The notes under the pieces were generated by a model that worked only from the letters and a program-made list of their open reading frames with translations, did not search any database and was not told where the DNA came from. The position numbers were made by a program, and so were the translations under genes. A DNA stretch of 64,000 bases, from positions 3,306 to 67,305 of the forward strand of contig JAFGRO010000002.1 of assembly GCA_016935095.1 (NCBI GenBank), read 5' to 3'. Origin of the DNA: Candidatus Woesearchaeota archaeon. GTDB taxonomy: Archaea > Nanobdellota > Nanobdellia > Woesearchaeales > GW2011-AR15. Within the stretch, counting starts at the first letter, position 1, and each line of letters starts with the position of its first letter. Shown here one piece after another: positions 221 through 27,104 of this stretch.

Positions 221-936
221 TTTTTATGACCTGTAGCTAAAAGCATTTTTTCTTTTGCGAATCTTATTAATTTTCTTTGTGAAGTTTCATTTCTGTCTTT
301 CCATTTTAAATAATCAGGCAATAAGCTTATTATTTTCGGAATAAAGTTTAAACAAGGATATTCCCAGATAAAAGGCAACTGCAGGAAATATTCACAGCTT
401 ACCTCTGAAAAACCATTTATCCTCATTGCATTCTGCAGTCCTTTTCTTGTAAAAGCCTTTACATGTGTGTAATCATCCCAGTAATTTTTAAACTGGCTTT
501 TCCAGTCAGGAGTCATAATAACGGCAATTCCTCCTGGTTTTAAAACCCTAAGAGCCTCTTTTAAAATATTTTCTGTATTGGATATATGCTCAATAACAGA
601 TTTTGAAAAAACAAAATCAAAGAAATTATCTTTATAAGGAAGTTTGTCTTTTTCAAGATCACAAGATTCAATCGTGAAATTTTTTAATATTTCAACACAT
701 TCTCTTCTCTTATCAATGCCATAAGCCTGGAGACCGCATCTTGAAAAACCGACCAGGTGATTGCCTTTTCCGCTGCCTATATCCAGAATCCTGCATTTCT
801 TTTTGTTTTTAATTGCATAATGCTTAAAAAATCTTTTGAAAATATAATTACATATTTTTTGGGGATAATCTCTTTTTCCGTACTCTTTCCTGAAATAATT
901 AGTTTCAAGATAGCTTGGCATTCTATAAGACCTCAT
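217..936 (-). CDS. Class I SAM-dependent methyltransferase
   Basis: SAM-binding motif I LDIGSGKGNH is followed by an acidic residue (GIDKRRE) and then a VLKPGG motif. Co-directional with and overlapping the neighbouring genes. Confidence 0.8.
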   Translation of the reverse strand: MRSYRMPSYLETNYFRKEYGKRDYPQKICNYIFKRFFKHYAIKNKKKCRILDIGSGKGNHLVGFSRCGLQAYGIDKRRECVEILKNFTIESCDLEKDKLPYKDNFFDFVFSKSVIEHISNTENILKEALRVLKPGGIAVIMTPDWKSQFKNYWDDYTHVKAFTRKGLQNAMRINGFSEVSCEYFLQLPFIWEYPCLNFIPKIISLLPDYLKWKDRNETSQRKLIRFAKEKMLLATGHKK

Positions 937-1678
937 TAACCTTTTTTCTTAATTCCCTGAATTCATCATTATTTAAAATCTTTTCAGCGTATTTTAAATC
1001 TTCAATTATATCTAAATCTGCTGTTTTATCTGTAATAAAAGCATGTATGAATTTTCCATGGAGCATGTTTGTTCTTTTAATTGTTTCTGGTTTTATTATA
1101 TCAATATATCCATTTGGTTTGAATGTAACAGGAAATTTTTGTCTTGGATAATTATGGTATTCTTCATCTTCTTTAAATTCCTGTTTACAGAAAAAGTCAT
1201 AATAGCCTCCTGCTTTTTTGAATAATTTATAAGGTGTTTCTTTTAGTATATGCGAGCTTCTCAGAGAAGTTGCTTTTTTATCAGTAATCATCTCTTCAAT
1301 TGCCTTATCTATTAGTCTGAAATCCCTGAGCGGTGTTGTAGGTCTTAGGTGTACAATCAAGTTAGGGACATAATTCTCATTTTCTTTGAGAAAATCCAGT
1401 GCATGCATTACCCATTCCCTGTCAGTTGAATAATCACCAGATATATCTACTGGTCTTAAAAAAGGAACTTCAGCTCCATATTTTTCCGCAATCTTCGCAT
1501 ATTCTTCACTGTCAGTGGAGACAATGATCCTGTTAATAAACTTAGATAATTTGGCAGCCACAACTGAATACGCAATTAATGGATGTCCTCCTAAGTTTAT
1601 GATGTTTTTATCAGTGATTCCCTTTGAGCCGCTTCTTGCGGGAATCAGTGCAAGTATTTTTAGATTTGTTTCTTTCAT
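923..1678 (-). CDS. Acylneuraminate cytidylyltransferase family (CMP-nonulosonate synthetase, NeuA/LegF-like), copy 1
   Basis: N-terminal ALIPARSGSKGITDKNI and the following fold are characteristic of CTP_transf_3 CMP-NeuAc/CMP-Kdo synthetases. Sits directly downstream of a NeuB-like synthase. Confidence 0.85.
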   Translation of the reverse strand: MKETNLKILALIPARSGSKGITDKNIINLGGHPLIAYSVVAAKLSKFINRIIVSTDSEEYAKIAEKYGAEVPFLRPVDISGDYSTDREWVMHALDFLKENENYVPNLIVHLRPTTPLRDFRLIDKAIEEMITDKKATSLRSSHILKETPYKLFKKAGGYYDFFCKQEFKEDEEYHNYPRQKFPVTFKPNGYIDIIKPETIKRTNMLHGKFIHAFITDKTADLDIIEDLKYAEKILNNDEFRELRKKVNEVL

Positions 1679-1682
1679 TTAA

Positions 1683-2714
1683 TTATAGATTATCCACTCT
1701 TCTTAGTTTTTTAATTATCGGCTTTTCCGACTCAAATATCTTTTTATTGCCGTCGCCTAAATATAAAGAGAGGAATTCAGCTTCTCTGGTAATATATTCC
1801 ATTCCCTTTTTTTCAAGGCTTGCTGCCTGGTCACTTCCATACATAGACCTGTCCAGGGTAATATGCCTTTCAACTACGCATGCTCCTAATGCGAGTGCAA
1901 CAACCGAAGGCATTATACCTGTTTCATGGCCGCTGTACCCTATAGGGCAGTTAAAGTATTTCCTGAATGTTTTTATAACATTAAGGTTCAGCTCTTCCAG
2001 CTTTGTAGGATAAGTTGATGTGCAATGCAGAATCACAAGATTTTCCTCGCCTAATATACTTAATGCTTTTTTGATTTCCTCCATTGAAGACATGCCTGTA
2101 GATAATATAACCGGCTTGCCTGTTTCTTTTATTTTATTCAGCAATGATTTATTCGTTAGAGTGGCTGAAGCAATTTTATAACATGGCACATCAAATTTTT
2201 CAAGAAAATCAACACTGCCGACATCCCAGGGAGAAGCGAACCACATTATGCCTTTTTCTTTGCAATACTCATCAATCTCTTTGTATTCTCTCTCTCCGAA
2301 TTCCAGTGCCCTTTTTAAATCACCGTTTGTAGTGCCAAAAGGACTTTCCCTTGCTCTTTCTAAGTCCTCTTTTGAATAAACAACATCAACATTCCTTTTT
2401 TGGAATTTAACAGCATGCCATCCGCAATTTACTGCCAGATCAATTAATTTTTTTGCAATATTTATATCACCGTTATGGTTAATACCTATTTCAGCAATTA
2501 AAAAAACGGGCTGCTTATGACCTATTAGCCTGTTGCCTATTTTTACTGGTTCCGGGTTTTTAATATCCAGGAATATTTTTTCATAAAAATTCCAAGCCTG
2601 GATAACTGCCTGGGTCTTATTCAGAATTAGCCCGCTGCTTTCATTGACATAGCTGCTGATCTTTTCATTTAATTCTTCAGGTATTGTTAAAGACATATAA
2701 CCTTGTTTTGGCAT
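1683..2714 (-). CDS. N-acylneuraminate-9-phosphate/nonulosonate synthase family (NeuB/LegI/PseI-like), copy 1
   Basis: FLIAEIGINHNGDINIAKKLIDLA is the NeuB TIM-barrel signature. A C-terminal SAF-like domain (LRRVDNL) is present. Same strand as and adjacent to the cytidylyltransferase. Confidence 0.9.
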   Translation of the reverse strand: MPKQGYMSLTIPEELNEKISSYVNESSGLILNKTQAVIQAWNFYEKIFLDIKNPEPVKIGNRLIGHKQPVFLIAEIGINHNGDINIAKKLIDLAVNCGWHAVKFQKRNVDVVYSKEDLERARESPFGTTNGDLKRALEFGEREYKEIDEYCKEKGIMWFASPWDVGSVDFLEKFDVPCYKIASATLTNKSLLNKIKETGKPVILSTGMSSMEEIKKALSILGEENLVILHCTSTYPTKLEELNLNVIKTFRKYFNCPIGYSGHETGIMPSVVALALGACVVERHITLDRSMYGSDQAASLEKKGMEYITREAEFLSLYLGDGNKKIFESEKPIIKKLRRVDNL

Positions 2715-2816: not shown

Positions 2817-4454
2817 TTATCTCTTTTTTAATATGCTATTTATTGCTTTAATTAATCTGTCATTAGCTTTTCCATCTGTTTTATAACAATATTCATAAGT
2901 CTCATTTTTTCTTTTTTCATTAATAGATTCTCTGAAGTTTTCATCAAATAGCATTTTTTTAATCAATTCATTTAATTTGTCACCGTGCTTAACAATAAAG
3001 ATAGAAGATATTCCATCAAACATATTTTCAAATAAATTCTCTCCGGACTCAAATTTCAGCAAGATACAGGGCCTGTTTAAGATCATTGCCTCAATCAAAG
3101 CAGTTGAGCCGAAGCTAATTACCAAGTCAGATTCCAGAATGGAATTATATAATATATCAGCGTTTTTATTACTTAGTGAGCCAAACCTGAATCTAATGTT
3201 TTTAATCCCAATCTTTTTGATTATTTTTTTATGCAAAGATATGTCTTTTTCAAGAGGATGTGTTTTAATGATAATCTCGGAATCAGGAAACTCTTTTAAA
3301 TTGGAAAACAGATAAAATAAATATTTTTCAAACTTTTCTTTAGGAAGAACTTTAAACTGCACTAGCGGTGAAGATAAGATTAATATTTTTTTTTTCCCTT
3401 TCTTTTTTTCTTTCTTTTTTATATAATTGCAGATACGCTCATTAATAAAAGAGCCAGTAACAAATATATTTTCAGGTTTCCATTCAGAGTATTTGATCAG
3501 TCTTTTTTTATCATTCGGGCCCCATACAGCAATCTTCGAGCTTGGAAAAAATTCAAAATTTATTCCTGTTAAATTATATGCATGAACTAAAAATAAAGAA
3601 GGTATTCCAGAAGAATGGGCAGCAGCAACCGCACACCTTTCCTGCAGACCGGAAACAACCAGTACAAGATCCAGTTGCTCTTTTTTAATAATATCTTTGA
3701 TTGTGTAATAATAAAGCAGGTAAATGAACAATATTTGTTTTGAGAATAATAAATCCAGTTCTTCATTCACAAACTTCAATAAGGATTCTTTTTTATAAGC
3801 AAATAGTCTCTCTTTAATCTTTTTATCTAATCTTTTCCATTTCCCGGAATATTTTTTTGCTTCTTTTAATGAGCGATAAAATGTTTCTTTGGAAATATAC
3901 TTATCAATCCAGTGATAATACCCTGAGGAAAGAGGCTTTTCAAATGGATTAGTGATTCTTGTTCCGATTACAGGAATTAATTCAATTTTATTGTCCTTTT
4001 CAAGTCTCCTGAATAATTCTCCAATTCTGAAAATATCAATTATTTTTCTTTTTTCATCCAGTTTAATCTGGTCAGTATGCGCTAGAAGCATGACCCTTTT
4101 CTTTTTTGTCTTTTTGCTTTTTTTTTTAACATCCTTTTTTTTAATTAACCTGATATAGTATGTGAAAATAATCACGCTAAGAAAGATTCTGAGGCTGAAT
4201 GAGGCTAGTTTCATCATAAGCCTATGAAAAAAAGAATAATCTCTTTTATCTAAAATTGCATTAAACCGTTTTGTGATTTCAAAGAAAGGAAGCGGAAAGC
4301 AGCCGGCATTAAACCTGAATGAATGAAACCACCAGATTGGGATGTTATCATCAATTTTAAAGGAGTCATCAAAACTCTGTTTATTGTTGATTTTTTTTTT
4401 TGACCAAACAAGTAGTGTCTCTTCAATGTTTTTTAAGGTGTCTCTTGTTTTCAT
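2817..4454 (-). CDS. Membrane-anchored GT-B-fold glycosyltransferase-like protein (TagF/KpsS 'capsule polysaccharide biosynthesis'-like). Candidate CMP-nonulosonate transferase. Paralog of 15985..17610.
   Basis: Hydrophobic helix near residue 90 (LASFSLRIFLSVIIFTYYIRLI). Poly-Lys linker KKKDVKKKSKKTKKKR. CAVAAAHSSGIPSLFLVHAYN motif. C-terminal GT-B-like nucleotide-binding region (VISFGSTALIEAMILNRPCILL). Family assignment not confirmed. Confidence 0.5.
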   Translation of the reverse strand: MKTRDTLKNIEETLLVWSKKKINNKQSFDDSFKIDDNIPIWWFHSFRFNAGCFPLPFFEITKRFNAILDKRDYSFFHRLMMKLASFSLRIFLSVIIFTYYIRLIKKKDVKKKSKKTKKKRVMLLAHTDQIKLDEKRKIIDIFRIGELFRRLEKDNKIELIPVIGTRITNPFEKPLSSGYYHWIDKYISKETFYRSLKEAKKYSGKWKRLDKKIKERLFAYKKESLLKFVNEELDLLFSKQILFIYLLYYYTIKDIIKKEQLDLVLVVSGLQERCAVAAAHSSGIPSLFLVHAYNLTGINFEFFPSSKIAVWGPNDKKRLIKYSEWKPENIFVTGSFINERICNYIKKKEKKKGKKKILILSSPLVQFKVLPKEKFEKYLFYLFSNLKEFPDSEIIIKTHPLEKDISLHKKIIKKIGIKNIRFRFGSLSNKNADILYNSILESDLVISFGSTALIEAMILNRPCILLKFESGENLFENMFDGISSIFIVKHGDKLNELIKKMLFDENFRESINEKRKNETYEYCYKTDGKANDRLIKAINSILKKR

Positions 4455-4478: not shown

Positions 4479-6227
4479 TTAATGATATTCATTATTCTTC
4501 AATATTGAATCCAGAAACTTTGAATTATTATAGATGGCATTAGTAAAATCATCTATTTTTCCGGAATTAAATGCTTCAATAATCTCAAGAATTCCCTGTT
4601 CAGCCTTTAGTTTAGTCCTGAAATTTAATTCTTTTTTAATTTTATCAAAATTCACTCTATAGTCTCGTTTATCAACATCTTTAAGCGAAATGTTCATCTT
4701 TGAGCTGGGAATTAATTCTTTTATTTTTTCTCCTATTTCAATAATTTTATAATTCTCTTCATTAGAGCCAACATTAAAAATTTCTCCTTTTACTTTGTTA
4801 ATAGGCGCTTCCAGAACTTTGATGTATGCGTCAGCAGCATCTTTTACATGAAGCAAGGGTCTCCATTGCTCTCCTCCGAAAACTGAAAATTCTCCTTTTT
4901 TTATGGCCAACGCTGTCAATATGTTCAAAACCAAATCAAATCTTGGCCTGTGAGAGAATCCGTAAAGTGTGCCCATCCTCATGATTGTAGGAGAAAAGTT
5001 TTCATCAGTTAATTCAAATAAACCTTTTTCACTGTTAATCTTGTCTCTTGCATATAACGAGACAGGGCTTAATTCTGAGTCTTCTGTTAAAATATCCTGG
5101 CCCTGCCCATAGACACTGCAGCTGGAGGCAAAAATAAACCTGTTAATCTGGTTGTATTTGCATATCTGAGCTAAATTTAAGGTTGCAAGATAATTCTGCT
5201 CAATTGTTTTTAAGGGGGATAAACCACATGCAGGATCTCCCACTATTCCTGCCAGATGAATCACAGCATTAACATCTCTTATTGATTTTGTGATATCTTC
5301 AATATGCCTTACATCACCTGTAACCAACCTGAAATTCGGATGATTTTCCAATTCACTGAGAGACTCTTTCCCGTATAATAATCTGTCCAGAACAACAACC
5401 CAGTATCCTCTTTTTAGGAGTTTTCTGACCAAGACCGAGCCCAAATACCCTGCGCCTCCTGTCACAAGAACAGAATTTATTTTTTTGTTTTTATAAGTTG
5501 AATAATTACTAAGATAATCATAGTAACCTTTGTTATAAACCTGTTTAAGTGCAGTTACCCTGGCTTCTTTATCTAAAACAGGGATTTTAAGAAATTTATT
5601 ATGGGGGATTAATCTAATTAGCTCTTCATTATCCATATTTTCTGTTCCGGTGACTGGATTTTTATTCATAATTTTGCCAATAGGCTCTTCATGACTTACT
5701 CCGGACAGAATTCCCTCTCTTATATCATTATCTGTAACAAGTCCTTTTAACCTTTCATTATCATCAACAATTAATCCAATCCCTAACCCGGATAAATCAA
5801 TCTTTTTCATTACAGATTTTAAAGAGTCATTTTTATTTACAAACACTTTCTCAAGTTCTTTGCCTTTTATTGAAACAGGCAACTCACTAAACTTGATAAA
5901 AATGTCAGCAACTTTATTGTCATCATCCACTAGGATAAGTTTTCCGACAATATCTCTTTTTTCAGTTAGTTCAATAAGTTCCTGTTTAGAAGAATTAATG
6001 TGGGCTGTAACTGGATTAAAATTAGCAATGCTTTTCAGCTTTTTGTTAATGTCATTATCTTTTATAAGGCCTCTTCTTAAATCCCCTGCGCTTACAATGC
6101 CTTTTAGCTTTTTATCCTGGTCAACTAATATGAGAATGCCTAACCCTGTCTCATTTAATATGCCTAGTCCTTTTTCAATAGTTTCATCCTCATTAACAAG
6201 AAGGGAATCTATAATGCCCTCATTCAT
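4479..6227 (-). CDS. Fusion protein: N-terminal tandem CBS domains plus C-terminal NAD-dependent sugar-nucleotide 4,6-dehydratase/epimerase (PseB/LegB/CapD-like)
   Basis: The N-terminal ~240 aa carry repeated CBS-like segments (VTAHINSSKQELIELTEKRDIVGKLILVDDDNKV; LKGLVTDNDIREGIL). The C-terminus has the Rossmann motif VLVTGGAGYLGSVLVRKLL and an SDR extended-family fold. Confidence 0.85.
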   Translation of the reverse strand: MNEGIIDSLLVNEDETIEKGLGILNETGLGILILVDQDKKLKGIVSAGDLRRGLIKDNDINKKLKSIANFNPVTAHINSSKQELIELTEKRDIVGKLILVDDDNKVADIFIKFSELPVSIKGKELEKVFVNKNDSLKSVMKKIDLSGLGIGLIVDDNERLKGLVTDNDIREGILSGVSHEEPIGKIMNKNPVTGTENMDNEELIRLIPHNKFLKIPVLDKEARVTALKQVYNKGYYDYLSNYSTYKNKKINSVLVTGGAGYLGSVLVRKLLKRGYWVVVLDRLLYGKESLSELENHPNFRLVTGDVRHIEDITKSIRDVNAVIHLAGIVGDPACGLSPLKTIEQNYLATLNLAQICKYNQINRFIFASSCSVYGQGQDILTEDSELSPVSLYARDKINSEKGLFELTDENFSPTIMRMGTLYGFSHRPRFDLVLNILTALAIKKGEFSVFGGEQWRPLLHVKDAADAYIKVLEAPINKVKGEIFNVGSNEENYKIIEIGEKIKELIPSSKMNISLKDVDKRDYRVNFDKIKKELNFRTKLKAEQGILEIIEAFNSGKIDDFTNAIYNNSKFLDSILKNNEYH

Positions 6228-7417
6228 TTGCAGGCCTCTTTAACTTCAGTTTTGAATTTATGTATCCTGATAATAGCTTTACATATTTTGTTAATTGTCT
6301 CTTCATCCATGAAATTATAGATAGGAAGACAAATCACATTATTTGAAACAAGTTCAGTATTTTTTAAATCATTATATTCTGCTTTTTCTTTATAAGCATC
6401 AAGTTTATGCATCGGAGGATAAAAATAAAATTTTGTCATAATATTTTCAGCATTCAATGCTCTTGCTAATTCATACCTGTTTAATCCAAATTCATTTTCA
6501 TTGACAGTAAATCCAAAATCCTTGTGTGTGGAAACATTTCCCTCTTTAATAATCTGGAAATTGATGCCCTGAATGTTTTTTAGTTCCTTTTTAAATTTAT
6601 CAACATAACTGTTCCTGTTTTCAACATATTTATCTAAATCTTTTAATTGGTGCAATCCTGTGACTGCGTTGATTTCGCTCATCCTTGCATTTAAACCAGG
6701 CCTCTTGCAGGAATAATCAGGATAATTGCCATAGTTCCTGTCAATTTTTAACATTTCAGCTAATTCAGTGTTATTTGTGGCTACTATTCCTCCTTCTATT
6801 GTCGTCAAAAGCTTTGTCGGGCTGGCACTGAAAACCTCAACATCACCAAACTGCCCGATTTTTTTTCCCTGATAAGATGAACCTAATGCATGGGCACAGT
6901 CAAAGATTAATTTTAAGTTATGTTTGCTGGCAATTTCCTGTAATCTCTCAATATAACAAGGGTTTCCATACATATGTACAGCAATAATTGCCTTTGTTTC
7001 AGGACTGATATTTTTTTCAACTTCTTCAGGTGAAATAGTAAATGTTTCCCTGTCAATATCAACAAATCTGATTTTGCAGTTATTCCAGTATGCGGCATGG
7101 ACTGTTGCAGAAAAGGTAAATGCAGGAACTAGCACTTCTGAATTTCTTAAACCAAGTGCCTGCATACTTAAAATTAAGCCGGATGTACAGGAAGAAACGC
7201 CTATAACATGTTTAACACCAATATAGTTTTCCAGTTCCTCTTCAAATTTCTTTAGTTTAATATCAACAGAAGTAAGCATATTGCTGTTTAAAACAGCGCT
7301 AATGTCTTTCAGCAATTCTTTTTCAACATATTTATCAACATTGGGCCTTATAATCGGCAGTCTTTTATCAAAAACAGCTCTCCCATTTAAAATTGCAGGT
7401 TTATTGTCCATTTTCAT
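6224..7417 (-). CDS. DegT/DnrJ/EryC1/StrS-family PLP-dependent sugar aminotransferase (PseC/LegC-like)
   Basis: Aminotransferase class V-like fold with the PLP-lysine context FSASPTKLLTT. The ORF track starts it at 7477, but the MKMDNK start at 7417 avoids a 77-nt overlap with the upstream gene. Confidence 0.85.
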   Translation of the reverse strand: MKMDNKPAILNGRAVFDKRLPIIRPNVDKYVEKELLKDISAVLNSNMLTSVDIKLKKFEEELENYIGVKHVIGVSSCTSGLILSMQALGLRNSEVLVPAFTFSATVHAAYWNNCKIRFVDIDRETFTISPEEVEKNISPETKAIIAVHMYGNPCYIERLQEIASKHNLKLIFDCAHALGSSYQGKKIGQFGDVEVFSASPTKLLTTIEGGIVATNNTELAEMLKIDRNYGNYPDYSCKRPGLNARMSEINAVTGLHQLKDLDKYVENRNSYVDKFKKELKNIQGINFQIIKEGNVSTHKDFGFTVNENEFGLNRYELARALNAENIMTKFYFYPPMHKLDAYKEKAEYNDLKNTELVSNNVICLPIYNFMDEETINKICKAIIRIHKFKTEVKEACK

Positions 7418-8075
7418 TATCTCCTTTAAAAATAAATTTATTTCCATATACTTCCAGGTAAGGTAAATCCCTTGCATTTGGAAAATATGTTGCTTTTAAT
7501 CTTCTTTTAATTTCATTTTCATCCATATCAAGGCTTAATTTACATAGTTCCTGCAAATCTTTTCTTGTATATGGTCTTCTTAACCATTTCTCATCTGACC
7601 TGGGTAAGGGTTTCTCTTTTTCAATGAATTTGAGAATATCATAAAATAAGGTGAGCATATAATCCATGGTTCTTTCTTTTAAAGATTGTACTGTATCTGT
7701 ATCCTGCATCTGGAATTTGATGGTTTTCACAATTTTTCCAGAATCAACTTTTTCCAGCATATAATGACATGTGGCGCCAAATTCCTTTTCCTGATTATAA
7801 ATTGCAAAATTATAACAGCCGATGCCAGGATATTTTGGGGATGCGGGATGGAAATTTATTGAAAACTTGGCTTTATTCAATAATTCTTTTGGAACAATCC
7901 AAGGTGAAAGATACGAGATAATATAATCACCTTCCCATTCAATATTGGGGAGAGGGTCACCGCTTTCACCTTCAAATATTTCTGTATTCGGAATTTTATT
8001 TTTAATACAATCCTGAACAATTTTGCAGTATTTTGATTTTTTTGTTAATAATAGGATTTTCATTTTTAATAACAA
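7401..8075 (-). CDS. Sugar N-formyltransferase (Formyl_trans_N family)
   Basis: FHPASPKYPGIGCYNFAIYN...GATCHYMLEKVDSGKIV matches the formyltransferase SLLPxYRG/HxxxxxxDxG catalytic-core pattern. Sits between the aminotransferase and the 2-epimerase, in the slot usually filled by an N-acetyltransferase. Confidence 0.75.
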   Translation of the reverse strand: MLLKMKILLLTKKSKYCKIVQDCIKNKIPNTEIFEGESGDPLPNIEWEGDYIISYLSPWIVPKELLNKAKFSINFHPASPKYPGIGCYNFAIYNQEKEFGATCHYMLEKVDSGKIVKTIKFQMQDTDTVQSLKERTMDYMLTLFYDILKFIEKEKPLPRSDEKWLRRPYTRKDLQELCKLSLDMDENEIKRRLKATYFPNARDLPYLEVYGNKFIFKGDNENGQ

Positions 8076-9217
8076 ATCTGCTTTTGGATTATATCTTTTG
8101 AAATTTTGATTTCACTTAATACTTTACAGATTTTAACTGAAGCAGTCCCTTCTCCATAAGGGTTTTTTATGTTTTTTAATAAATCTTTAAAATTTTCATC
8201 ATATAATGCTTTATTAATCGCTTTAATAATATCAGATTTGTCAAACTCAACATCAATCACGTTATTGCTTCTTTCTCTTAGCTTTTGCCTTATGCCAATA
8301 TTTACCACAGGTATCTTAAAAGAGGGAGCTTCTATTATACCTGAGCTTGAATTTCCGATTAAAACAGAACCATATTTTAATAATGAGAGATATTCTCTGT
8401 GCTTTAAATTTTTAAAAATTCTTAAAAATTTTTGATTCTTATTTCCCTCAATTATTTTAATTATCTGAAGAGTCCCAGAATCAGCATTGGGATAAATCAA
8501 TACTGTTGGCAAATCAAATTCTTTAATTGCATCAAGTGTTATTTTAAATTGTTTTCCTGAAGACCCGATTTCAGTTGTGACAGGATGCTGTAGAAGTATT
8601 AAAAAAGGCATATCCGGATCAATATTGAATCTTTTTTTGAAATCTTGTTTTGACATTAATTCTTCATGCAAAGCAGTATCTAGTCCTGAAGAACCCACAT
8701 TAAAAACATAATCCGGATTTTCTCCCATTTTAATTATTCTCTGTTTACTTTTTTCTGTAACTGCAAAATGAATATGGCTGAATTTTGTTATGGCATGTCT
8801 TGTGCATTCATCAAGACCTCCTGAAACATCCCCTCCGTGAATATGGGCAATAACCTTATTCATAAATGCTCCTGAAACAGCAGCAGCCAACGGCTCTGTT
8901 CTGTCACCTAAAATCAATATAATATCAGGATTTAAGTCTTTGAAAGCATTGGTTAAATTAATAATGCCTTTACCAACAGACCTGCTCATAAATTCTCCGC
9001 TGTCTCCGACTTCAGTCATTGGGACTTTTTTATCAATTGCAAAACCGTCTTTAATAATGTCTTCATAGGTATTACCGTATTCTTCCAAAAGGTGCATGCC
9101 CGTTGCAATTAACTGTAATGTGATTTTGTCATTTTCAGCTAGTCTTTTTATAATTGGCCTTAAAAGCCCGTATTCTGCTCTGGTTCCGGTCACAACACAA
9201 ATCTTTGTTTTTTTCAT
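8066..9217 (-). CDS. UDP-N-acetylglucosamine 2-epimerase family, hydrolysing type (NeuC/LegG-like)
   Basis: KICVVTGTRAEYGLLRPIIKRL and HIHGGDVSGGLDECTRHAITK are Epimerase_2 (WecB/NeuC) signatures. Confidence 0.85.
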   Translation of the reverse strand: MKKTKICVVTGTRAEYGLLRPIIKRLAENDKITLQLIATGMHLLEEYGNTYEDIIKDGFAIDKKVPMTEVGDSGEFMSRSVGKGIINLTNAFKDLNPDIILILGDRTEPLAAAVSGAFMNKVIAHIHGGDVSGGLDECTRHAITKFSHIHFAVTEKSKQRIIKMGENPDYVFNVGSSGLDTALHEELMSKQDFKKRFNIDPDMPFLILLQHPVTTEIGSSGKQFKITLDAIKEFDLPTVLIYPNADSGTLQIIKIIEGNKNQKFLRIFKNLKHREYLSLLKYGSVLIGNSSSGIIEAPSFKIPVVNIGIRQKLRERSNNVIDVEFDKSDIIKAINKALYDENFKDLLKNIKNPYGEGTASVKICKVLSEIKISKDIIQKQICY

Positions 9218-9228
9218 TTATTCCACTC

Positions 9229-10365
9229 TTATTCCAGCATCTCAAATGTAATTAAAGTGTCTTTTTTAATATCCTCTTTTGCTTTTCTTCCAATGATTTT
9301 TTCTAAAAATCTCGGGTGCAGACCCATGCCCGGTCTTTTAATTATTAAATCTTTCTTTTCTATTAACTTGCCTTTATTGATGTCTTTATCTGAGATTATG
9401 CTTTTTCTTGTAATTTTTGCAATTCGTAACTCTGCGTCATATGGTTTTTTTTCAGGTGACCCGAGGATTTTTTCAATATTATCTAATTTCAGATTCTCAC
9501 CAAATTGTTTATTAATCTCTTCAAAAGCCTGTTTTGGAGAGAGAATCTTATTATTAAAAATAAATCTTGAATATTTCATTATTTTTTCAATTTCATCAGG
9601 TTCAGCAGAAGCTTTGTGGTCAGGGCCATACATTTTTTTATCAAGTGTAAAATGTTTTTCAATTACATTAGCGTTAAGACATGCCGCTATTACAGATGCT
9701 TCAATTCCCTCACTATGATCCGAGAATCCGACCAGACAATTAAATTCATTTTTAAGTGTAAGCATTGCTCTCAGGTTAATTTTATCAAGAAGCGTTGGAT
9801 AATTAGTAGTGCATTGCAGTAATATGAGTTGGTCATTATTTTTCTTAATCACATCTACAGCTTCTCTGACTTCCTGTAAATTAGCCATTCCCGTACTAAG
9901 AAAGATTGGTTTGCCTAATCTTGAAACATAATCTAAAAACGGCAAATTAGTCAAATCTCCTGAACCAATTTTAAATCCGGGAATTCCAATTTTATCAAGA
10001 ACATCAGCACTCCATTTGCCGCAGTGAGGTGTTGATAAAAAAATAATCCCCTTCTTGTCACAGTACTCTTTCATGATTTTGTGTTGCTCTTCTGTTAATT
10101 CTATCCTTTTTAATAATTCAAGATAACTTTCATCACTTCCTGTGTTTTTTTTTGAATACTCGACCTGTTCTGTTTTTTCTGTTACAAGCAGTTCTGCTTT
10201 AAAAAGCTGGAACTTAATACTATCAACACCGATTTCCAGGGCTTTGTCAACTAATTCCTTTGCAATTTTAATATCTCCGTTATGGTTGACTCCGGCTTCA
10301 GCAATAATAAAGCAGGGATGATTTTGTCCGATTATTTTGTTGCCAATCTTAATTTTATCTTTCAT
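9229..10365 (-). CDS. Nonulosonate synthase (NeuB/LegI-like), copy 2, with C-terminal SAF domain
   Basis: CFIIAEAGVNHNGDIKIAKELVDKALEIG is the NeuB signature. The C-terminal ~60 aa look like a SAF antifreeze-like domain (LIIKRPGMGL). Confidence 0.9.
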   Translation of the reverse strand: MKDKIKIGNKIIGQNHPCFIIAEAGVNHNGDIKIAKELVDKALEIGVDSIKFQLFKAELLVTEKTEQVEYSKKNTGSDESYLELLKRIELTEEQHKIMKEYCDKKGIIFLSTPHCGKWSADVLDKIGIPGFKIGSGDLTNLPFLDYVSRLGKPIFLSTGMANLQEVREAVDVIKKNNDQLILLQCTTNYPTLLDKINLRAMLTLKNEFNCLVGFSDHSEGIEASVIAACLNANVIEKHFTLDKKMYGPDHKASAEPDEIEKIMKYSRFIFNNKILSPKQAFEEINKQFGENLKLDNIEKILGSPEKKPYDAELRIAKITRKSIISDKDINKGKLIEKKDLIIKRPGMGLHPRFLEKIIGRKAKEDIKKDTLITFEMLE

Positions 10366-11582
10366 TTCTCAGTCTCCCATATTGGGTGTCTCAGCTTCCA
10401 TTCTCCTTTTTCCTTTTTCCATAAATGAGGCGACCTGAATTTATCCGCTGTCTCAAAAAATTCATCTTTGCTCATATCCAGATACTCTAAAAATTCTTTG
10501 AAATATCGTTTTGGAAATTCTGAATCAAATTTCTTTACTAATGCAATCCCTTCATCCCTTGTGATCTTTTTATTCCTTATCTCCTGGGATGCATCATAGG
10601 TTGCTCTTCCAATCCCGAATTTGATAAGAGTTGTCCAATAATGATAAGGGTCTGTCTTGTCATCAATACTGTTATATTTTGAATAAGTTCCTTCGGTTCT
10701 CTGGTCATTTGGCTGAAACCCTATCTTTTCAACAGCAAAATAATAAGCTTCCTGGGGATCCCATTTCTCATAATAGCCGACGTAGTGTACATTGATTTCT
10801 TTATTATTTGCACTATCCGGATCAAGAGGAAGATAAGGATCAAGGTCAGTCATAGTTAATCCGTATTTTTTAATAAGCTCTCTGACCTGCACTCCTCCAA
10901 GGAATAAATTCATATAATCTCCATGTAAATGAAATTTTTTTTCTCTGAGAGAAGAAAGAACATCTTTTTTTGGGTTGCCGTATTCTGCTTCATTTTCACC
11001 GTAAAATACTAGAGGGACATCATACTTTAATGCAAATTTAGCCCCAATGTTTTTTTGTCCGAGAATAAACGGCTGGAATGGGTGAAGTAAATTGACAAAT
11101 GCTAATCTCGTTAATAACCTGTGTACCTTGCCATTTGGTGTAAACAGTATATTGTCAAATCCCCCTTTTTGAGTCCATGCGCGGAAATTACGCCACCCGT
11201 AAGGTGTAAATAAATGAGGTGCCCATGTAACAGTAAGAGGGTTCATATTGTATTTGTATTTTAACAGCCATGCTGCCATTGTGCTATCCTTGCCTCCGCT
11301 TCCCGGCACTATGCAATCATACCTACCCTCTGTTCTTCTGTATTTGTCACATAATCTTTTTAATTCTTTTTCTCTTTTTTTCCAGTCGATTTTCTCTTTT
11401 AATTCTGAAACTCTGCATGCATCGCAGATTCCTTCTTCATCAAAGTTGATGGTGTGTTTTTTGGATTTAACTGTATGTCTGAATTCCAGTGAAGAAGAAG
11501 GTCTTTGATTTGAAATAACACAATGTTTGCAGTATTTCACTTCTTTTGGTAATCCATAATATGCTTCTACGTTATTGTTCAT
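10362..11582 (-). CDS. N-acetyl sugar amidotransferase (WbuX/PseA/AglX family; PP-loop ATP pyrophosphatase)
   Basis: N-terminal Zn-ribbon cysteines (CKHCVISNQRP...GICDACR). PP-loop SGGKDS. Immediately upstream of a HisF/HisH paralog, as in the WbuXYZ / AglXYZ systems. Confidence 0.8.
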   Translation of the reverse strand: MNNNVEAYYGLPKEVKYCKHCVISNQRPSSSLEFRHTVKSKKHTINFDEEGICDACRVSELKEKIDWKKREKELKRLCDKYRRTEGRYDCIVPGSGGKDSTMAAWLLKYKYNMNPLTVTWAPHLFTPYGWRNFRAWTQKGGFDNILFTPNGKVHRLLTRLAFVNLLHPFQPFILGQKNIGAKFALKYDVPLVFYGENEAEYGNPKKDVLSSLREKKFHLHGDYMNLFLGGVQVRELIKKYGLTMTDLDPYLPLDPDSANNKEINVHYVGYYEKWDPQEAYYFAVEKIGFQPNDQRTEGTYSKYNSIDDKTDPYHYWTTLIKFGIGRATYDASQEIRNKKITRDEGIALVKKFDSEFPKRYFKEFLEYLDMSKDEFFETADKFRSPHLWKKEKGEWKLRHPIWETEK

Positions 11583-11592
11583 TTTTTCACCT

Positions 11593-13026
11593 TTATAAAG
11601 AACTAAAATATTGTATTATACTCATACCCAATGCTCCGCTTTTTTCCGGGTGGAACTGTGTTGCAAACAGACTGTCTCTTCTTAATATTGAGCAGAATTT
11701 CTGCTCACCGTATGTTGTTATTGCAACAATATTTTTCGGGTTTTCAGGATAAACATAATATGAATGAATAAAATAAGCTTCTGAGCAAGAAGACTTATTT
11801 GAAATAAACTCATTAAAGAATCCATTATTAGGTGTTAACTTATTCCAACCCATGTGAGGGATCCTGTAATATGTGTCCTTAACCTCTTTTTTAGGTTTAA
11901 AAGGAACTACTTTTCCCTGTATAATATCAAGCCCTTTATGATGTCCGAACTCAAAGCTTTCACTCATCAATACCTGCATTCCGAGACAGATTCCTAAAAA
12001 AGGTTTATTGTTCTTAATATATTTTTTAATCGGTTCAATAAAACCCCTGTTTTTAAGCTCCTGCATAGCATAACCAAATGCCCCGTCCCCTGGTAAAACC
12101 AAAAGGCTTGACTTTAGGATCTCTTCAGGATTTTCAATAATCTTTACTTTGTTCCCAAAAAACCTGAAAGCATTTACAACACTTTGTAAATTGCCTGCTC
12201 CGTAATCAATAACAGAGAGGGTCTTTTTATTATTGATATTTGGCTGTTCAACTTGCCATTCATTTTTTTCTCTCATTAAAAAATTATTTTTTTTAAGGTA
12301 AGCTTTTACTTGGTCTATAGATGTTTCATTATAATGTAAGATTGTACCAAAAGCAACAGCATCACATCTGGTTACTTCAAGACAATTCAGTATATCTGCT
12401 TCATTAGAAGCTCCTCCGCAAGCTATAACCGGCACATCAACCACAGATGAGATCTTTTTTATTAGTTCAACATCATATCCTTTTCTTGTCCCTTCCTTAT
12501 CCACAGAAGTAACAAGCAATTCTCCTGCACCTAATTCAACTAATTTTTTTGCCCATTCAATAGCATCTAGATTTGTTCTTTCCCTTCCGCAGTCAATATA
12601 GTTCTCCCATTTATCTTCTCCATGATATTTTGCTTCAATAGAGCCTACTATACACTGTGATCCGAACATTCTTGAAGCCTGATTAATAAATCCGGGATTT
12701 CTTATTGCAGCAGTATTAATTGCAACTTTATCTGCTCCTGCTCTCAGCAGTTTCTTAATATCTTCTATGGTCCTTATACCTCCTCCGACAGTGATAGGAA
12801 TAAAAATCCCGTTAGAGGTTGTATTTTCAACTACCTCAAGAAGATTGTTTCGCTCGTATAAACTGGCAACAATATCAATATAAATTATTTCATCAGCTCC
12901 TGACTCATAATACTTCTTAGCAAGCAAATCAGGCTTGCCTACAACTCTTAAACCTTCCATTTGTATTCCCTTGACAACATTAGGTCCCTTTACATCCAGT
13001 CTTGGAATAATTCTGATTTTCTTCAT
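11593..13026 (-). CDS. Fused imidazole-glycerol-phosphate-synthase-like protein: HisF-like cyclase domain (WbuZ) at the N-terminus and HisH-like class I glutamine amidotransferase (WbuY) at the C-terminus
   Basis: N-terminus IIPRLDVKGPNVVKGIQMEGLRVVGKP plus a second half-barrel (VTSVDKEGTRKGYD) give a HisF fold. C-terminus LSVIDYGAGNLQSVVNAFRFFG...GICLGMQVL...FHPEKS carries the GATase Cys-His-Glu triad. Confidence 0.85.
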   Translation of the reverse strand: MKKIRIIPRLDVKGPNVVKGIQMEGLRVVGKPDLLAKKYYESGADEIIYIDIVASLYERNNLLEVVENTTSNGIFIPITVGGGIRTIEDIKKLLRAGADKVAINTAAIRNPGFINQASRMFGSQCIVGSIEAKYHGEDKWENYIDCGRERTNLDAIEWAKKLVELGAGELLVTSVDKEGTRKGYDVELIKKISSVVDVPVIACGGASNEADILNCLEVTRCDAVAFGTILHYNETSIDQVKAYLKKNNFLMREKNEWQVEQPNINNKKTLSVIDYGAGNLQSVVNAFRFFGNKVKIIENPEEILKSSLLVLPGDGAFGYAMQELKNRGFIEPIKKYIKNNKPFLGICLGMQVLMSESFEFGHHKGLDIIQGKVVPFKPKKEVKDTYYRIPHMGWNKLTPNNGFFNEFISNKSSCSEAYFIHSYYVYPENPKNIVAITTYGEQKFCSILRRDSLFATQFHPEKSGALGMSIIQYFSSL

Positions 13027-13721
13027 TTTATCTCCATTAATTTTTCAGCTATCTTCCAGTCAATAGGCTCATCAATATCTATAGAACTGATCTTATCCAT
13101 AGGAAAGGGGAATACCCTTTTTCCATAGCCATAATTACCTGATTTAAAAATTACATCTGATGTGTAAATATAAATAGCCCCGTTTATTTCATAGGTTTCT
13201 TCTTCATCCTGTGTTCTTAAGACATTAAAATCATTCTCAAAAAGAAATCTTACTTGATTTTTCTCTTTTTTTAAAATCCACTGCGGACCAAGATGTCTCT
13301 TTGTCACAGAAAACAATGTGTCTGCATTATTGTCAGCAAATATTTTTATTGCAGAATCAATATGCTCGGCTTTTCTTAATGGAGATGTTGGTTGCAGCAG
13401 GACAACAATATCCGGAATATATTTCTCATTTGCATTCAGATAATTTAAAACATGCTTTAATACATCAATTGATTTAGACGTATCTTCTGCAAGTTCTTTT
13501 GGTCTGTCGATAATCTCCGCTTTGTATAGCAATGCACTGGCTTTTATTTCAGGGTCTTCAGTAGATACTATTGTCCTGTCAATATATTTTGAGTTTAGGG
13601 ATTGCTCAATAGAATAAGCAATTAACGGCCTGCCTTTTAATAATCTAATATTTTTTTTTTTAATTCTTTTAGAGCCGCCTCTGGCAGGAATTATTGAGAT
13701 AATCTTTCTCTTACCATACAT
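13023..13721 (-). CDS. Acylneuraminate cytidylyltransferase family (CMP-nonulosonate synthetase), copy 2
   Basis: IISIIPARGGSKRIKKKNIRLLKGRPLIAYSIEQS is a CTP_transf_3 signature. 4-nt overlap with the downstream gene. Confidence 0.85.
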   Translation of the reverse strand: MYGKRKIISIIPARGGSKRIKKKNIRLLKGRPLIAYSIEQSLNSKYIDRTIVSTEDPEIKASALLYKAEIIDRPKELAEDTSKSIDVLKHVLNYLNANEKYIPDIVVLLQPTSPLRKAEHIDSAIKIFADNNADTLFSVTKRHLGPQWILKKEKNQVRFLFENDFNVLRTQDEEETYEINGAIYIYTSDVIFKSGNYGYGKRVFPFPMDKISSIDIDEPIDWKIAEKLMEIK

Positions 13722-15984: not shown

Positions 15985-17610
15985 TCAGGTTCCGGCAATT
16001 CTGTAAATCTCTTTTACAATATTTTCTGTCCCGTTAAAAGGCTGATATAAATATTTTTCAATCTCTCTCCGGTTTTTATTAAGGACTTTTGTGAGTTTAT
16101 TTTTATTATTCACAATCCTGGCTACCTTTGAAAAATCATCTTTTATTCCCTGTTTTATAATGGTTTCTAGTTCATTGTATTCATAACCGCCGATTTGCTC
16201 ATATCCCGGAACAACAAAATAAACAACCAGTTTGTTCATCAGGATTGTATCAATCATACAGGTTGATCCGAAAGAAATGCAGAACAGGCTGTTCTTTATT
16301 AAATTGTGCAGTATTTTCTGGTTATTGTGATCACTTTTAGACCTTATTATCTCAATATCCATATCTTTGAATCTGTTCTTGAAGTTGTAATATGAATTAA
16401 TCAGCTTTTCAGCCGGGTGCAGTTTAATTTTAACCTTATTAAATCCTCTGTTTTTGAGGTTTTTCAGTATGGTCTCAATAATGGATGAATATTGCTTTTT
16501 GCTAAAATAATTATCTTCAACAACAGGCTGGGTAAATAAGAGAACATATTGTCCTGAAATATCCTGATTCTGCTGTATCTCAAATTTAAGATCTTCAAAT
16601 AAATTAGTTCCTGTTGCAATTATTCGTTTTAAAGCTTCCTTGTTTTGGTATTTGGCAATAATCTTTCTTTGGGGTTTTCCGAATGTAAAATAATATTGCT
16701 TTTCCAAAAGATAAAGATACTCCAATTCAAATAATGGTCCGTGCTGGATTATAACAGAAGGAATATTTCCTGTATGTGCAGCGGCATGCGCACATTCATC
16801 TAAAAGGCCCCAGGTAGAAAATATCAGCTTGATCTTCCTTTGCTTTATGATTTTTTCAAATGTATAATAATATAAAAAGACAATACTTAACCACTCTTCT
16901 GAAAACAGGAAATTAAATTCTTCTTCAATATAGGGATAGAATGATTTGTTTTTGAGAGCAAGTATCTTTTTTATTTTATTTTTACTGAGCCTTTTCCATT
17001 TGAAATTATACTCCCTGGCTTTACGCAGGGATTTTTTAAACAGGGTATCATCAAAAAAATCTTCTGCCCTTAGAAAATCCATGCTTGGCTTAATATTTGA
17101 GAAATATGATAAGGGTTGTATCGAAACTAAATTGCATTCAAATTTATTATCTTTTTTTATTTTTTCAATGATGCTGCTCAGCCTGTAGGCAGTTACTTTG
17201 TCATTTATTGTCCGGATCTGGTCTGCATATGTCTGGAACAATATCCCTTCTCTGCTGCAATTAGTTGTCTCGGGCCTGTTCAATTTCCAGGTAAACCACC
17301 TGAAATAAAAAACAAATTTTAGATACATTAAGACAAGGCCAAATGCAATCTTCTTATTTATTTTATATAAAATGCTTCTCTTCTTATTCTTCAGGTATGC
17401 ATTAATATTGTCCTGTAAATTCCAGGATCTTATATTAAACGGCGTTCTGATTAATTTATCCTTTAGAAACCAAAATAAGGGAATTCCATTAAAATCAAGA
17501 AATTTGCCGGTTTCTATATCCTTACCTTTATATTCCGCAAATTTATAAATTAAATATCTTACCTTTTCCAGAATTTCATTACTCATTTGTATGGACCTTT
17601 GATTATTCAT
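15985..17610 (-). CDS. Membrane-anchored GT-B-like glycosyltransferase-like protein, paralog of 2817..4454
   Basis: Shares with 2817..4454 its architecture and the CAHAAAHTGNIPSVIIQHGP motif, a hydrophobic helix near residue 100 (FGLVLMYLKFVFYFRWF), and a C-terminal GT-B-like segment (FCISFGSTCMIDTILMNKLVVYF). Confidence 0.5.
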   Translation of the reverse strand: MNNQRSIQMSNEILEKVRYLIYKFAEYKGKDIETGKFLDFNGIPLFWFLKDKLIRTPFNIRSWNLQDNINAYLKNKKRSILYKINKKIAFGLVLMYLKFVFYFRWFTWKLNRPETTNCSREGILFQTYADQIRTINDKVTAYRLSSIIEKIKKDNKFECNLVSIQPLSYFSNIKPSMDFLRAEDFFDDTLFKKSLRKAREYNFKWKRLSKNKIKKILALKNKSFYPYIEEEFNFLFSEEWLSIVFLYYYTFEKIIKQRKIKLIFSTWGLLDECAHAAAHTGNIPSVIIQHGPLFELEYLYLLEKQYYFTFGKPQRKIIAKYQNKEALKRIIATGTNLFEDLKFEIQQNQDISGQYVLLFTQPVVEDNYFSKKQYSSIIETILKNLKNRGFNKVKIKLHPAEKLINSYYNFKNRFKDMDIEIIRSKSDHNNQKILHNLIKNSLFCISFGSTCMIDTILMNKLVVYFVVPGYEQIGGYEYNELETIIKQGIKDDFSKVARIVNNKNKLTKVLNKNRREIEKYLYQPFNGTENIVKEIYRIAGT

Positions 17611-23416: not shown

Positions 23417-24067
23417 TTATCTTTTTTTAAACTCTTCCCAGTTGTCCAGAAATTCCTGGATTGTGCTCTCTGTTCTCGGGTTCCAGGGCAGTTTCATTAA
23501 AATAGGAGTTGGTATTGTTAGAATATGAGCTCCGCTAAGCATTGCCCTGTTTATATGCGAAACCTGCCTGAAGCTTCCCAAGATGATTTCTGATTTGATT
23601 TTATGCCTTTCAAAAATCTCAACAGTTTCACAAACAATTTGTTCGGCATTATAGCCCATATCCTCTATCCTTGCCCAGAATAAGCTCACGAATGTGGCAC
23701 CTGCTTTTGCCGCTAAAACCGCCTGCTTTGTACACATGCATGCAGTAACATTGGTTTTTATGCCTTCTTTATTAAGTATGTTCACTGCTTTGAGGCCTGT
23801 AATCCCCATTGGAATTTTTACATTAACGTTATTACCCCATTTTGCAAATTTCCTGGACTGTCTAATCATTTCATCTAAATCATTTGAAGTAACCTCAATG
23901 CTTATCGGTCCTTTCACAATCTCAATAATCTCTTTCATTCTGGTTTCAAAATCAATGCCTTTTTCTTTTGATACAATGCTGGGATTAGTTGTACAGCCGT
24001 CAATAATACCCCAGCTTAAAAGTTCTTTTAATTCATCCAGATTTGCAGTGTCTGCAAATATTTTCAT
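23417..24067 (-). CDS. tal: Transaldolase / fructose-6-phosphate aldolase family (short archaeal-type Tal/FSA)
   Basis: MKIFADTANLDELKEL..GIIDGCTTNPSIV is the Tal/FSA N-terminal signature. 216 aa. Confidence 0.85.
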   Translation of the reverse strand: MKIFADTANLDELKELLSWGIIDGCTTNPSIVSKEKGIDFETRMKEIIEIVKGPISIEVTSNDLDEMIRQSRKFAKWGNNVNVKIPMGITGLKAVNILNKEGIKTNVTACMCTKQAVLAAKAGATFVSLFWARIEDMGYNAEQIVCETVEIFERHKIKSEIILGSFRQVSHINRAMLSGAHILTIPTPILMKLPWNPRTESTIQEFLDNWEEFKKR

Positions 24068-24131
24068 TTTAAATCACCCTTTTTATTATATATATTTAAA
24101 ATGAAAACTACGAACATGAGTGAGTTTGTTT

Positions 24132-25290: not shown

Positions 25291-25301
25291 TTTTTTCAGC
25301 C

Positions 25302-26288: not shown

Positions 26289-26362
26289 CCCAAGATATAA
26301 ACAAAAATAACCGCTATATAAAGCTTTCGCCGAAAAATTTATAAAGAGAAAATCTCATAAAT

Positions 26363-27103: not shown

Positions 27104-27104
27104 T

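Follow-up and report, generated by a model that had tools for sequence, protein, structure and literature searches.

A candidate nonulosonic acid transferase from a so far archaeal GT-B family, encoded in a legionaminic acid-type operon of Candidatus Woesearchaeota

The question raised by this locus is which enzyme attaches the nonulosonic acids (NulOs) whose synthesis it encodes. The locus belongs to a 64,000-nt stretch of the genome of a DPANN archaeon, Candidatus Woesearchaeota archaeon (assembly GCA_016935095.1, contig JAFGRO010000002.1, positions 3,306 to 67,305; hereafter the window), and the gene in question, referred to as the target, is an open reading frame (ORF) at 2817..4454 on the minus strand. 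Few transferases for pseudaminic (Pse) and legionaminic (Leg) acids are known, namely the Maf proteins, GtfS and KpsS1/GT118, and to our knowledge none has been identified in archaea. Our literature searches found nothing on an archaeal NulO transferase, on NulOs in DPANN archaea or on TIGR04396, a family to be considered below, and only generic glycosyltransferases are listed for the Leg-containing N-glycan of Halorubrum sp. PV6 (PMC6137143). A preliminary description of the window had, reasonably in our view, proposed the target as transferase of a NulO activated with cytidine monophosphate (CMP). Our results place it in a GT-B family without a name, found so far in archaea only and probably specific for NulOs, and we give a CMP-nonulosonate:glycan transferase a slightly better than even chance of being the correct assignment; homology and gene context make the protein a candidate for the transfer step.

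The ORF is uninterrupted, starts with ATG and encodes 545 residues plus a stop; its product is identical to the NCBI 'hypothetical protein JXB41_00150' of Candidatus Woesearchaeota archaeon. It is the tenth in an array of 13 genes with the same direction, spaced by -77 to +102 nt. In transcription order, these encode an AsnC-type regulator, a cytidylyltransferase, a HisF(WbuZ)-HisH fusion, a WbuX amidotransferase, a NeuB with a SAF domain, a NeuC-type epimerase, a formyltransferase-like protein, a DegT aminotransferase, a dehydratase of the short-chain dehydrogenase/reductase (SDR) type with two CBS pairs, the target, another NeuB, another cytidylyltransferase and a methyltransferase. As previously described, the target lies within a NulO operon and directly upstream of a NeuB-family nonulosonate synthase (1683..2714) and a CMP-nonulosonate cytidylyltransferase (923..1678), both on the minus strand as is the rest of the operon. 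This NeuB lacks a SAF domain and its NeuB domain begins only at about residue 70-90, while the cytidylyltransferase matches CTP_transf_3 and is PseF-like below the cut-off. The upstream part of the operon spans 4479..13721. There, the SDR 4,6-dehydratase/epimerase (4479-6227, 582 residues) is LegB/PseB-like below the cut-off and carries its CBS pairs at the N-terminus, a fusion that is unusual and regulatory-looking for a NulO pathway enzyme. The formyltransferase-like ORF (7401-8075) was called from a TTG codon and overlaps the DegT gene by 77 nt; its real start is probably further downstream. The NeuC-type enzyme, a hydrolysing epimerase of uridine diphosphate N-acetylglucosamine (UDP-GlcNAc 2-epimerase), scores 455 bits (cut-off 235.9), and the N-acetyl-sugar amidotransferase WbuX (10362-11582) is also above its cut-off with 374.6 bits. 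The HisF-HisH fusion occupies 11593-13026, and the SAF-containing NeuB and the other cytidylyltransferase lie at 9229-10365 and 13023-13721.

With two NeuB and two cytidylyltransferases, and one each of NeuC-type epimerase, aminotransferase and dehydratase, the operon encodes a complete legionaminic acid-type pathway with acetamidino modification and, perhaps, N-formyl modification. Indeed, the formyltransferase-like ORF together with WbuX and HisF-HisH suggests N-formyl- and/or acetamidino-Leg, as in Halorubrum sp. PV6 and Legionella; the N-glycans of Halorubrum sp. PV6 bear N-formyl-Leg, and a formyltransferase candidate adjoins LegG in its cluster (PMC6137143). The operon likely leads to two NulO products or contains a branch point, which would fit the presence of two GT-B paralogs in the window. 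Since all steps up to the CMP-sugar are covered, no biosynthetic step remains for the target. The operon is part of a glycan island covering the first 49 kb of the window, which contains four GT2, four GT4, a PMT_2-type GT-C, a UbiA prenyltransferase and a heptose-like nucleotide-sugar module. Pfam scans of the larger ORFs between 1 and 51 kb revealed no GT38, GT42, GT52, GT80, other sialyltransferase-like or Maf family. Another island gene as the NulO transferase was also considered and rejected, as only GT2, GT4 and PMT_2 types were found in this region.

The AlphaFold2 model of the target (predicted local distance difference test, pLDDT, 93.4; predicted template modelling score, pTM, 0.92; 103-sequence alignment) displays a complete GT-B fold, with alternating strands and helices at residues 119-332 and 355-545, and Foldseek comparisons against the PDB give a probability of 1.0 to many GT-B proteins. 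The GT-B fold anticipated by the preliminary description is thus recovered; it had been confined to a C-terminal half, and the model shows both Rossmann-like domains. The N-terminal one corresponds to residues 119-335 (3450..4100, minus strand), including a helical insertion at 183-258, and the nucleotide-binding one to residues 336-545 (2820..3449, minus strand), with a Lys-run at residues 345-355 as inter-domain linker. The predicted fold is GT-B, yet in these models it does not discriminate the donor class, which leads us to the profiles and the conserved residues.

The best single hidden Markov model (HMM) match of the target is TIGR04396, 'surface carbohydrate biosynthesis protein', an uncharacterised NCBIfam subfamily (E = 5.8e-15, 55.4 bits against a cut-off of 125, C-terminal region only, residues ~336-544). 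It also matches NF046086, the BFO_1060 family glycosyltransferases (E = 1.5e-14, 53.9 bits, cut-off 200), with residues 336-543 aligned on profile positions 170-365. The C-domain is therefore the region matched by NF046086, TIGR04396 and the Pfam family Epimerase_2 (PF02350). These relationships extend over the family: among 60 members scanned against the curated libraries, NF046086 is matched by 59 (best E = 5.4e-24), TIGR04396 by 49 (best E = 1.5e-16) and PF02350, counted at E ≤ 0.01, by 54 (best E = 5.8e-15). BFO_1060, from strain 92A2, is orthologous to Tanf_01245/TFUB4_00887, the GtfS of Tannerella forsythia. In gtfS deletion mutants, the O-glycan lacks its terminal residue, Pse5Am7Gra or a Leg derivative, and CMP-Pse5Am7Gra can nevertheless be detected (PMC5420450; PMC6120980); the persistence of this CMP-sugar in the mutant shows that GtfS is a transferase and not a biosynthetic enzyme. 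This Pse/Leg transferase is the only functionally tested enzyme to which the target can be linked. Both proteins are of GT-B type with homologous C-terminal nucleotide-binding domains and an HP motif (PMC5420450 for GtfS), and both genes stand directly beside CMP-NulO biosynthesis genes, in clusters making acetamidino-modified NulOs. They differ in that GtfS, from Bacteroidota, has 445 residues and no predicted transmembrane segment, whereas the archaeal target is 100 residues longer and has an N-terminal helical extension.

The conserved residues of the family, counted on the 103-sequence alignment, are found in both domains. In the N-domain, these are G334 (103/103), H291 (nt 3582-3584; 99/103), G292 (93/103) and E272 (82/103, plus 12 Asp), near the motif CAVAAAHSSGIPS (residues 274-286, nt 3597-3635). 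In the C-domain, the family retains a K-x-H-P-x-E motif, in the target K397-T-H399-P400-L-E402 (nt 3249-3266), with H399 and P400 in 102 sequences each, K397 in 100 and E402 in 92 (plus 10 Asp). It is accompanied by Y408 (99/103), by S450-T451...E455 (nt 3090-3107), with S450 in 93 and E455 in 99 sequences, and by D527-G-K-A-x-x-R533 (nt 2856-2876), with D527 and G528 in 96 each and R533 in 94. The HP motif binds CMP-Neu5Ac in GT38, GT52 and GT80 enzymes (PMC2169525). By analogy, the K-x-H-P-x-E and S-T...E elements would match those holding CMP in these sialyltransferases, which share with the target the GT-B fold and the HP motif and represent the CMP-nonulosonate donor class proposed for it.

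We therefore favor a CMP-NulO transferase because the operon covers all biosynthetic steps, the island contains no other candidate, the family is linked to GtfS, the K-x-H-P-x-E and S-T...E elements are retained, and NeuB recurs beside family genes of different phyla. For this last point, 16 independent related loci were collected (the 3-sequence alignment gave 7 genome and 2 metagenome loci), and 10 of them have a NeuB homolog within the flanking DNA covered, at most 10 kb on either side (L001, L002, L003, L005, L008, L009, L010, L013, L017 and L019). L005 and L013 repeat the set of the window, with cytidylyltransferase, HisFH, WbuX, NeuB and NeuC. In L017, the order is a pseB-like gene, a DegT-NeuB-cytidylyltransferase fusion, an acetyltransferase and a PseG-like gene, and the family gene comes directly after these; this set of pse genes is also found in T. 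forsythia, in the order pseB-C-F-H-G-I and with gtfS behind it (PMC6120980). The fusion (L017:4320-8456) is a single 1378-residue product of a Woesearchaeota metagenome-assembled genome (MAG) that joins a DegT aminotransferase, NeuB with SAF and a CMP-cytidylyltransferase, three steps of Pse synthesis.

A possible mechanism can be outlined, each step of which is proposed by analogy with the GT38/52/80 sialyltransferases and GtfS. The target would be a cytoplasmic, probably membrane-associated GT-B glycosyltransferase whose donor would be the operon's own CMP-activated, legionaminic acid-type NulO with acetamidino and/or formyl groups, and whose acceptor would be a surface or S-layer glycan that is still growing and probably lipid-linked. 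CMP would be bound by the C-terminal Rossmann domain, with the ribose held by E455; H399, together with S450/T451 at a helix N-terminus, would hold the phosphate and stabilize the CMP leaving group. A base in the N-domain cleft, either H291 or E272, would activate the acceptor hydroxyl, and the N-terminal extension, whose helix is hydrophobic and Lys-rich, would keep the enzyme close to its acceptor on the cytoplasmic side of the membrane.

Several results nevertheless weigh against this assignment, and the structural comparisons discussed with the alternatives below belong to them. The target reaches no curated Pfam or NCBIfam threshold, and the homology with GtfS spans the nucleotide-binding domain only, the N-domains being unrelated at the sequence level. 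The literal D/E-D/E-G motif of sialyltransferases is missing: GtfS is reported with D/E-D/E-G and DXD motifs, and no column of either type reaches 60% conservation in the family alignment. Where GT38, GT52 and GT80 enzymes have D/E-D/E-G, the target family has (Q/V)-H-G, 108 residues before HP, which would be a comparable placement, and its N-domain and N-terminal extension are its own. The target keeps most of the conserved positions and departs at three of them (Y408 replaced by His, G292 by Ala, and Q290, Gln in 68/103, by Val); given these departures, it may be the more specialised or the more relaxed of the two paralogs. In addition, 6 of the 16 loci have no NeuB nearby, some of them being short or truncated. 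Finally, in 9 of the 16 loci a partner gene lies directly upstream of the family gene, often overlapping it by ~18 nt. Taken together, these 6 and 9 loci imply that the family may lack a single donor.

Regarding this partner, it encodes 410-463 residues, in which an NTP_transf_5 (PF14907) domain is combined with a dTMP-kinase-like P-loop domain. It is found at L002:8703-9953, L003:8483-9838, L004:8578-9957 (on a contig shared with L020), L007:8316-9680, L012:394-1740, L015:3051-4442 and L019:8626-9984, with more distant versions at L001:8677-9915 and L008:99-1301; tblastn at E 1e-5 did not find it in the window. Partner and family gene look like a conserved two-gene module, and we speculate that a partner resembling nucleoside monophosphate kinases would suit a transferase that releases a nucleoside monophosphate. 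A neighbor-joining tree of 18 context-labelled members was star-like, with NulO-linked and partner-linked members intermixed; the target grouped with the NulO-linked L013, where the partner is absent. A broader proposal, to which we give somewhat less than an even chance, is that the paralogs found an undescribed, so far archaea-only glycosyltransferase family using CMP-Leg/Pse donors, with the partner present in about half of the lineages, where it might recycle or remove the CMP product.

The family itself is large. Word-indexed protein searches returned only 2, 1 and 9 matches, probably because Lys-rich low-complexity words crowd the candidate list. In contrast, an exhaustive HMM search built from the two paralogs and one homolog retrieved 4863 cluster representatives with a limit of E ≤ 1e-3; of these, 1787 reached E ≤ 1e-10 and 231 reached E ≤ 1e-30, and the family thus comprises at least 231 clusters (50% identity). 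The best matches are nearly all full-length (480-585 residues), and the taxonomically placeable members are all archaeal (Woesearchaeota, Nanoarchaeota/Nanoarchaeia, Aenigmatarchaeota and Methanosarcinales MAGs). No match was found on plasmids (tblastn), nor among PDB chains when the target was searched as a single sequence. The NCBI names of the members are inconsistent and include 'hypothetical protein', 'glycosyltransferase', 'CDP-glycerol glycerophosphotransferase family protein' and 'UDP-GlcNAc 2-epimerase'.

The last of these names, carried by one member, introduces the first alternative, an epimerase- or hydrolase-like nucleotide-sugar enzyme that would be a divergent LegG/NeuC/PseG analogue serving a second NulO pathway. 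Indeed, UDP-GlcNAc 2-epimerases (PF02350; 4neq, 6vlc, 1f6d) are the closest solved relatives of the target in structure and sequence. They head the Foldseek list (E = 6e-12, template modelling score 0.66 on the target), and the family profile matches the Methanocaldococcus jannaschii epimerase 4neq with E = 7e-15. The score of the target against PF02350, 28.2 bits, is close to the gathering threshold of 30.6, and hhalign relates the family to the operon's own NeuC-type enzyme with 92% probability. Both groups share an H-P-R-type motif (in M. jannaschii), the C-terminal DG-x-A-x-x-R and a ribose-binding Glu, and H291 aligns with or next to the Glu of HVEAG or the second His of HIHGG. Moreover, NeuB and NeuA are each encoded twice in the operon, and the NeuC-type epimerase only once. 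The catalytic acids of the epimerases, in contrast, have no conserved counterpart in the family: the Asp column of GD(T/R) contains Gln, Ser or Asn and no acidic residue, the E117 position (the Glu of HVEAG) is Gln in the family and Val in the target, and the PEE region, with the acids around E131, falls in a gap. The family proteins are also ~170 residues longer, owing to the N-terminal extension and the helical insertion, and the operon already encodes a genuine NeuC-type epimerase. In L017, a full Pse set with a PseG-like gene stands besides the family gene, and T. forsythia does not need the related GtfS to make CMP-Pse (PMC5420450). We consider an epimerase-like function very unlikely for these reasons.

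After the epimerases, the Foldseek matches of the whole target are GT4 enzymes (MshA, BshA) and MurG, with TarL at rank 50. When the C-domain was modelled alone (pLDDT 92.8), GT4 enzymes led the list (BshA, PimA, TarM, WaaG), which are generic GT-B C-domains; epimerases occupied ranks 11, 37, 44 and 45 and TagF rank 27, and there were no sialyltransferases in the top 50. The C-domain fold was thus discarded as a test of the donor class, as enzymes dependent on CMP or cytidine diphosphate (CDP) did not top the list. These GT4 matches favor an ordinary GT-B enzyme using a sugar bound to UDP or guanosine diphosphate, which would add another sugar of the same glycan, e.g., the residue that accepts the NulO. 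The clustering of glycan genes would then explain its co-location with NulO genes and would accommodate the six loci without NeuB. Glycos_transf_1 is matched by 14 of the 60 members (best E = 1.6e-6) and Glyco_transf_4 by 5, the latter being the only Pfam match of the paralog (E = 0.017). We also take the FGSTxxxEAMxxxKP segment of the family to resemble the FGxxxxEAMAxGxP segment of GT4. On the other hand, BFO_1060 and TIGR04396 match more members, with far better E-values, than the GT4 families, and the family lacks the first Glu of the EX7E motif of GT4, with Asn, His, Ser or Thr at position 447. Similarly, the near-invariant K-x-H-P presumably stands where GT4 enzymes have their G-x-G/Lys-Arg diphosphate-binding segment. 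Four GT4 and four GT2 enzymes are already encoded in the island, which has no other candidate for the NulO step. Such a transferase of another sugar is therefore unlikely in our view, while being the likeliest of the alternatives.

The preliminary description had correctly set the two proteins apart from GT2, and had likened them to TagF/KpsS capsule enzymes rather than to GT4. This second comparison is not borne out, given the folds described above and the profile scores: the target reaches 16.2 bits against PF05159 (Capsule_synth; gathering threshold 20, residues 382-465), and PF04464 (Glyphos_transf) does not match it at E ≤ 10. KpsS/KpsC (PF05159, GT107), the pseudaminyltransferase KpsS1 (GT118) and TagF/TarL are GT-B-like and use CMP- or CDP-activated donors. 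However, KpsC, TarL and TagF match the target less well than do GtfS, TIGR04396 and the epimerases; the family profile gives E = 0.86 to KpsC (6mgb), whose aligned part is the K-x-H-P segment, and TarL appears in the sequence-profile search with E = 0.015. Some members come closer to this group, PF05159 being matched by 19 of the 60 (best E = 3.7e-6) and PF04464 also by 19 (best E = 1.9e-8). Together with TarL and TagF in the profile and fold searches, and the member that NCBI names after CDP-glycerol glycerophosphotransferases, this would agree with a TagF/TarL-like phosphotransferase that uses CDP-glycerol, CDP-ribitol or CDP-inositol and adds or polymerises a phospho-alditol on the glycan. 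In addition, two partner-containing loci, L019 and L020, have CDP-OH_P_transf and NTP-transferase genes. Beside the target, however, there is no CDP-alcohol synthesis gene, as opposed to the two CMP-NulO synthetases of the operon, and BFO_1060 matches are stronger and more general than those of PF04464. A CDP-alcohol phosphotransferase is thus improbable, to about the same degree as an epimerase.

The donor could also be a CMP-NulO and the product a polymer. Acetamidino-type NulO, the type for which WbuX and the HisF/HisH fusion equip the operon, is the sugar type of the poly-legionaminic acid O-antigen of Legionella, and the polysialyltransferase family PF07388 is matched by 20 of the 60 members (best E = 7e-9). 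The target could accordingly resemble polysialyltransferases and build a NulO homopolymer such as poly-legionaminic acid, instead of adding a single terminal residue. Nevertheless, the target itself matches neither PF07388 nor PF07922 (Pfam), the latter being found in one of the 60 members, and GtfS, the closest characterised relative, adds one residue. Beside the operon, we identified no ABC-transporter and no Wzx/Wzy export genes, although two polytopic membrane ORFs of the island are unannotated. A polymerase is a quite unlikely outcome, slightly less so than the epimerase or the phosphotransferase. The target would operate most like GtfS and the GT-B sialyltransferases, and it belongs to none of the curated families tested.

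The N-terminal extension (residues 1-118; 4101..4454, minus strand) is helical in the AlphaFold2 model, ending in a long helix at 75-105, and contains family-conserved I-P-(I/L)-W-W-F and P56 motifs; no Pfam family matched it. A cytoplasmic N-terminal segment followed by one hydrophobic helix and a poly-Lys linker had been described as the architecture of both paralogs; the hydrophobic stretch and the linker are present in the target. Its stretch LMMKLASFSLRIFLSVIIFTYYIRLI (residues 79-104; 4143..4220, minus strand) lies within the long helix and exceeds a Kyte-Doolittle hydropathy of 1.6 in a 19-residue window, and it is followed by the linker KKKDVKKKSKKTKKKR (residues 105-120; 4095..4142, minus strand). 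The helix of the paralog, in contrast, stays just under this threshold with 1.56, and the paralog has WKLNRPETTNCSRE in place of the linker. Furthermore, only 4 of 136 full-length members reach 1.6 in their N-terminal 140 residues, including the target and its closest relative P0025; the family columns aligned to the helix alternate Lys and Leu, an amphipathic pattern with a conserved N-E-x-x-K. We therefore reject a bitopic membrane anchor as a family trait, and the anchor with its poly-Lys tract is particular to the target and a few relatives. In the target copy alone, residues 79-104 could possibly form a monotopic or transmembrane anchor. Even there, the helix is unlikely to span the membrane with residues 1-78 on one side and the catalytic domains on the other, as its flanks are conserved in soluble-looking relatives and the whole protein is predicted as one compact model. 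A better fit would be a helix that lies within the cytoplasmic leaflet or dips into it, with the Lys-rich linker behind it.

The paralog (15985..17610, minus strand; 541 residues as the longest ORF, called as 533 in NCBI JXB41_00205) shares 25% identity with the target over ~500 residues (BLASTP E = 5e-42), in agreement with the two proteins of about 540 residues announced previously. A tblastn search with both revealed no third copy in the 64-kb window. The shared CA(V/H)AAAH(S/T)xxIPS motif is also real, CAVAAAHSSGIPS of the target being aligned with CAHAAAHTGNIPS of the paralog, whose motifs are CAHAAAH at 273, QHG at 289, HP at 398 and FGST at 447. It retains Q-H-G and the Tyr at the positions where the target departs. 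The paralog could have the same role for a second NulO, as the two NeuB and two cytidylyltransferase genes of the operon suggest, or act on a different acceptor or linkage. Its gene is located 1.8 kb past the regulator gene and is flanked by a B12-binding radical S-adenosylmethionine (rSAM) gene and an rSAM/SPASM gene; AsnB, methyltransferases and a GT2 follow.

As a candidate, this family makes the archaeal NulO transfer step testable, with a confident model, few invariant residues and a clear operon context. It would offer new catalysts for Leg/Pse conjugates in chemoenzymatic glycobiology. If the broader proposal above is correct, the family would represent the first archaeal NulO transferase and probably a new CAZy family, and it would be evidence that DPANN episymbionts coat themselves with sialic acid-like sugars. 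Should the assignment prove incorrect, this remains a large family with inconsistent annotation that deserves a proper name.

Beyond the operon, the island displays further features. The G+C content of the window is ~32%, and its 64 kb contain no tRNA genes and no Rfam families at the gathering threshold. A set of rSAM and amidotransferase genes is located at 14508-15953 (+), 28388-29935 (-), 47431-49164 (+), 17665-18687 (+) and 18680-20542 (-), comprising three B12-binding rSAM genes, one rSAM/SPASM gene and one AsnB-type amidotransferase; the proteins are probably sugar-modifying enzymes. Homologs of the first B12-rSAM protein (50-66% identity) are found beside NulO and family genes in L009 and L013, with a distant homolog (21% identity) in L007, and a homolog of AsnB is found in L010. 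At 23417-28040 (-), genes for a transaldolase-like protein, a HAD phosphatase, a SIS isomerase, a GHMP kinase, an NTP-transferase and an SDR epimerase follow in a row, which looks like a pathway for a nucleotide-activated heptose of the glycero-manno-heptose type. No AglB was recognised among the island ORFs scanned. Finally, a membrane-protein region (31602-32531, 32869-34485 and 34489-35361, all on the minus strand, and 43455-45146 on the plus strand) includes two polytopic ORFs of 309 and 538 residues, without Pfam match, that adjoin the UbiA prenyltransferase, and the PMT_2-type GT-C further on. The 538-residue protein has about 9-10 hydrophobic segments and a soluble tail of ~160 residues, and is GT-C- or polymerase-like.

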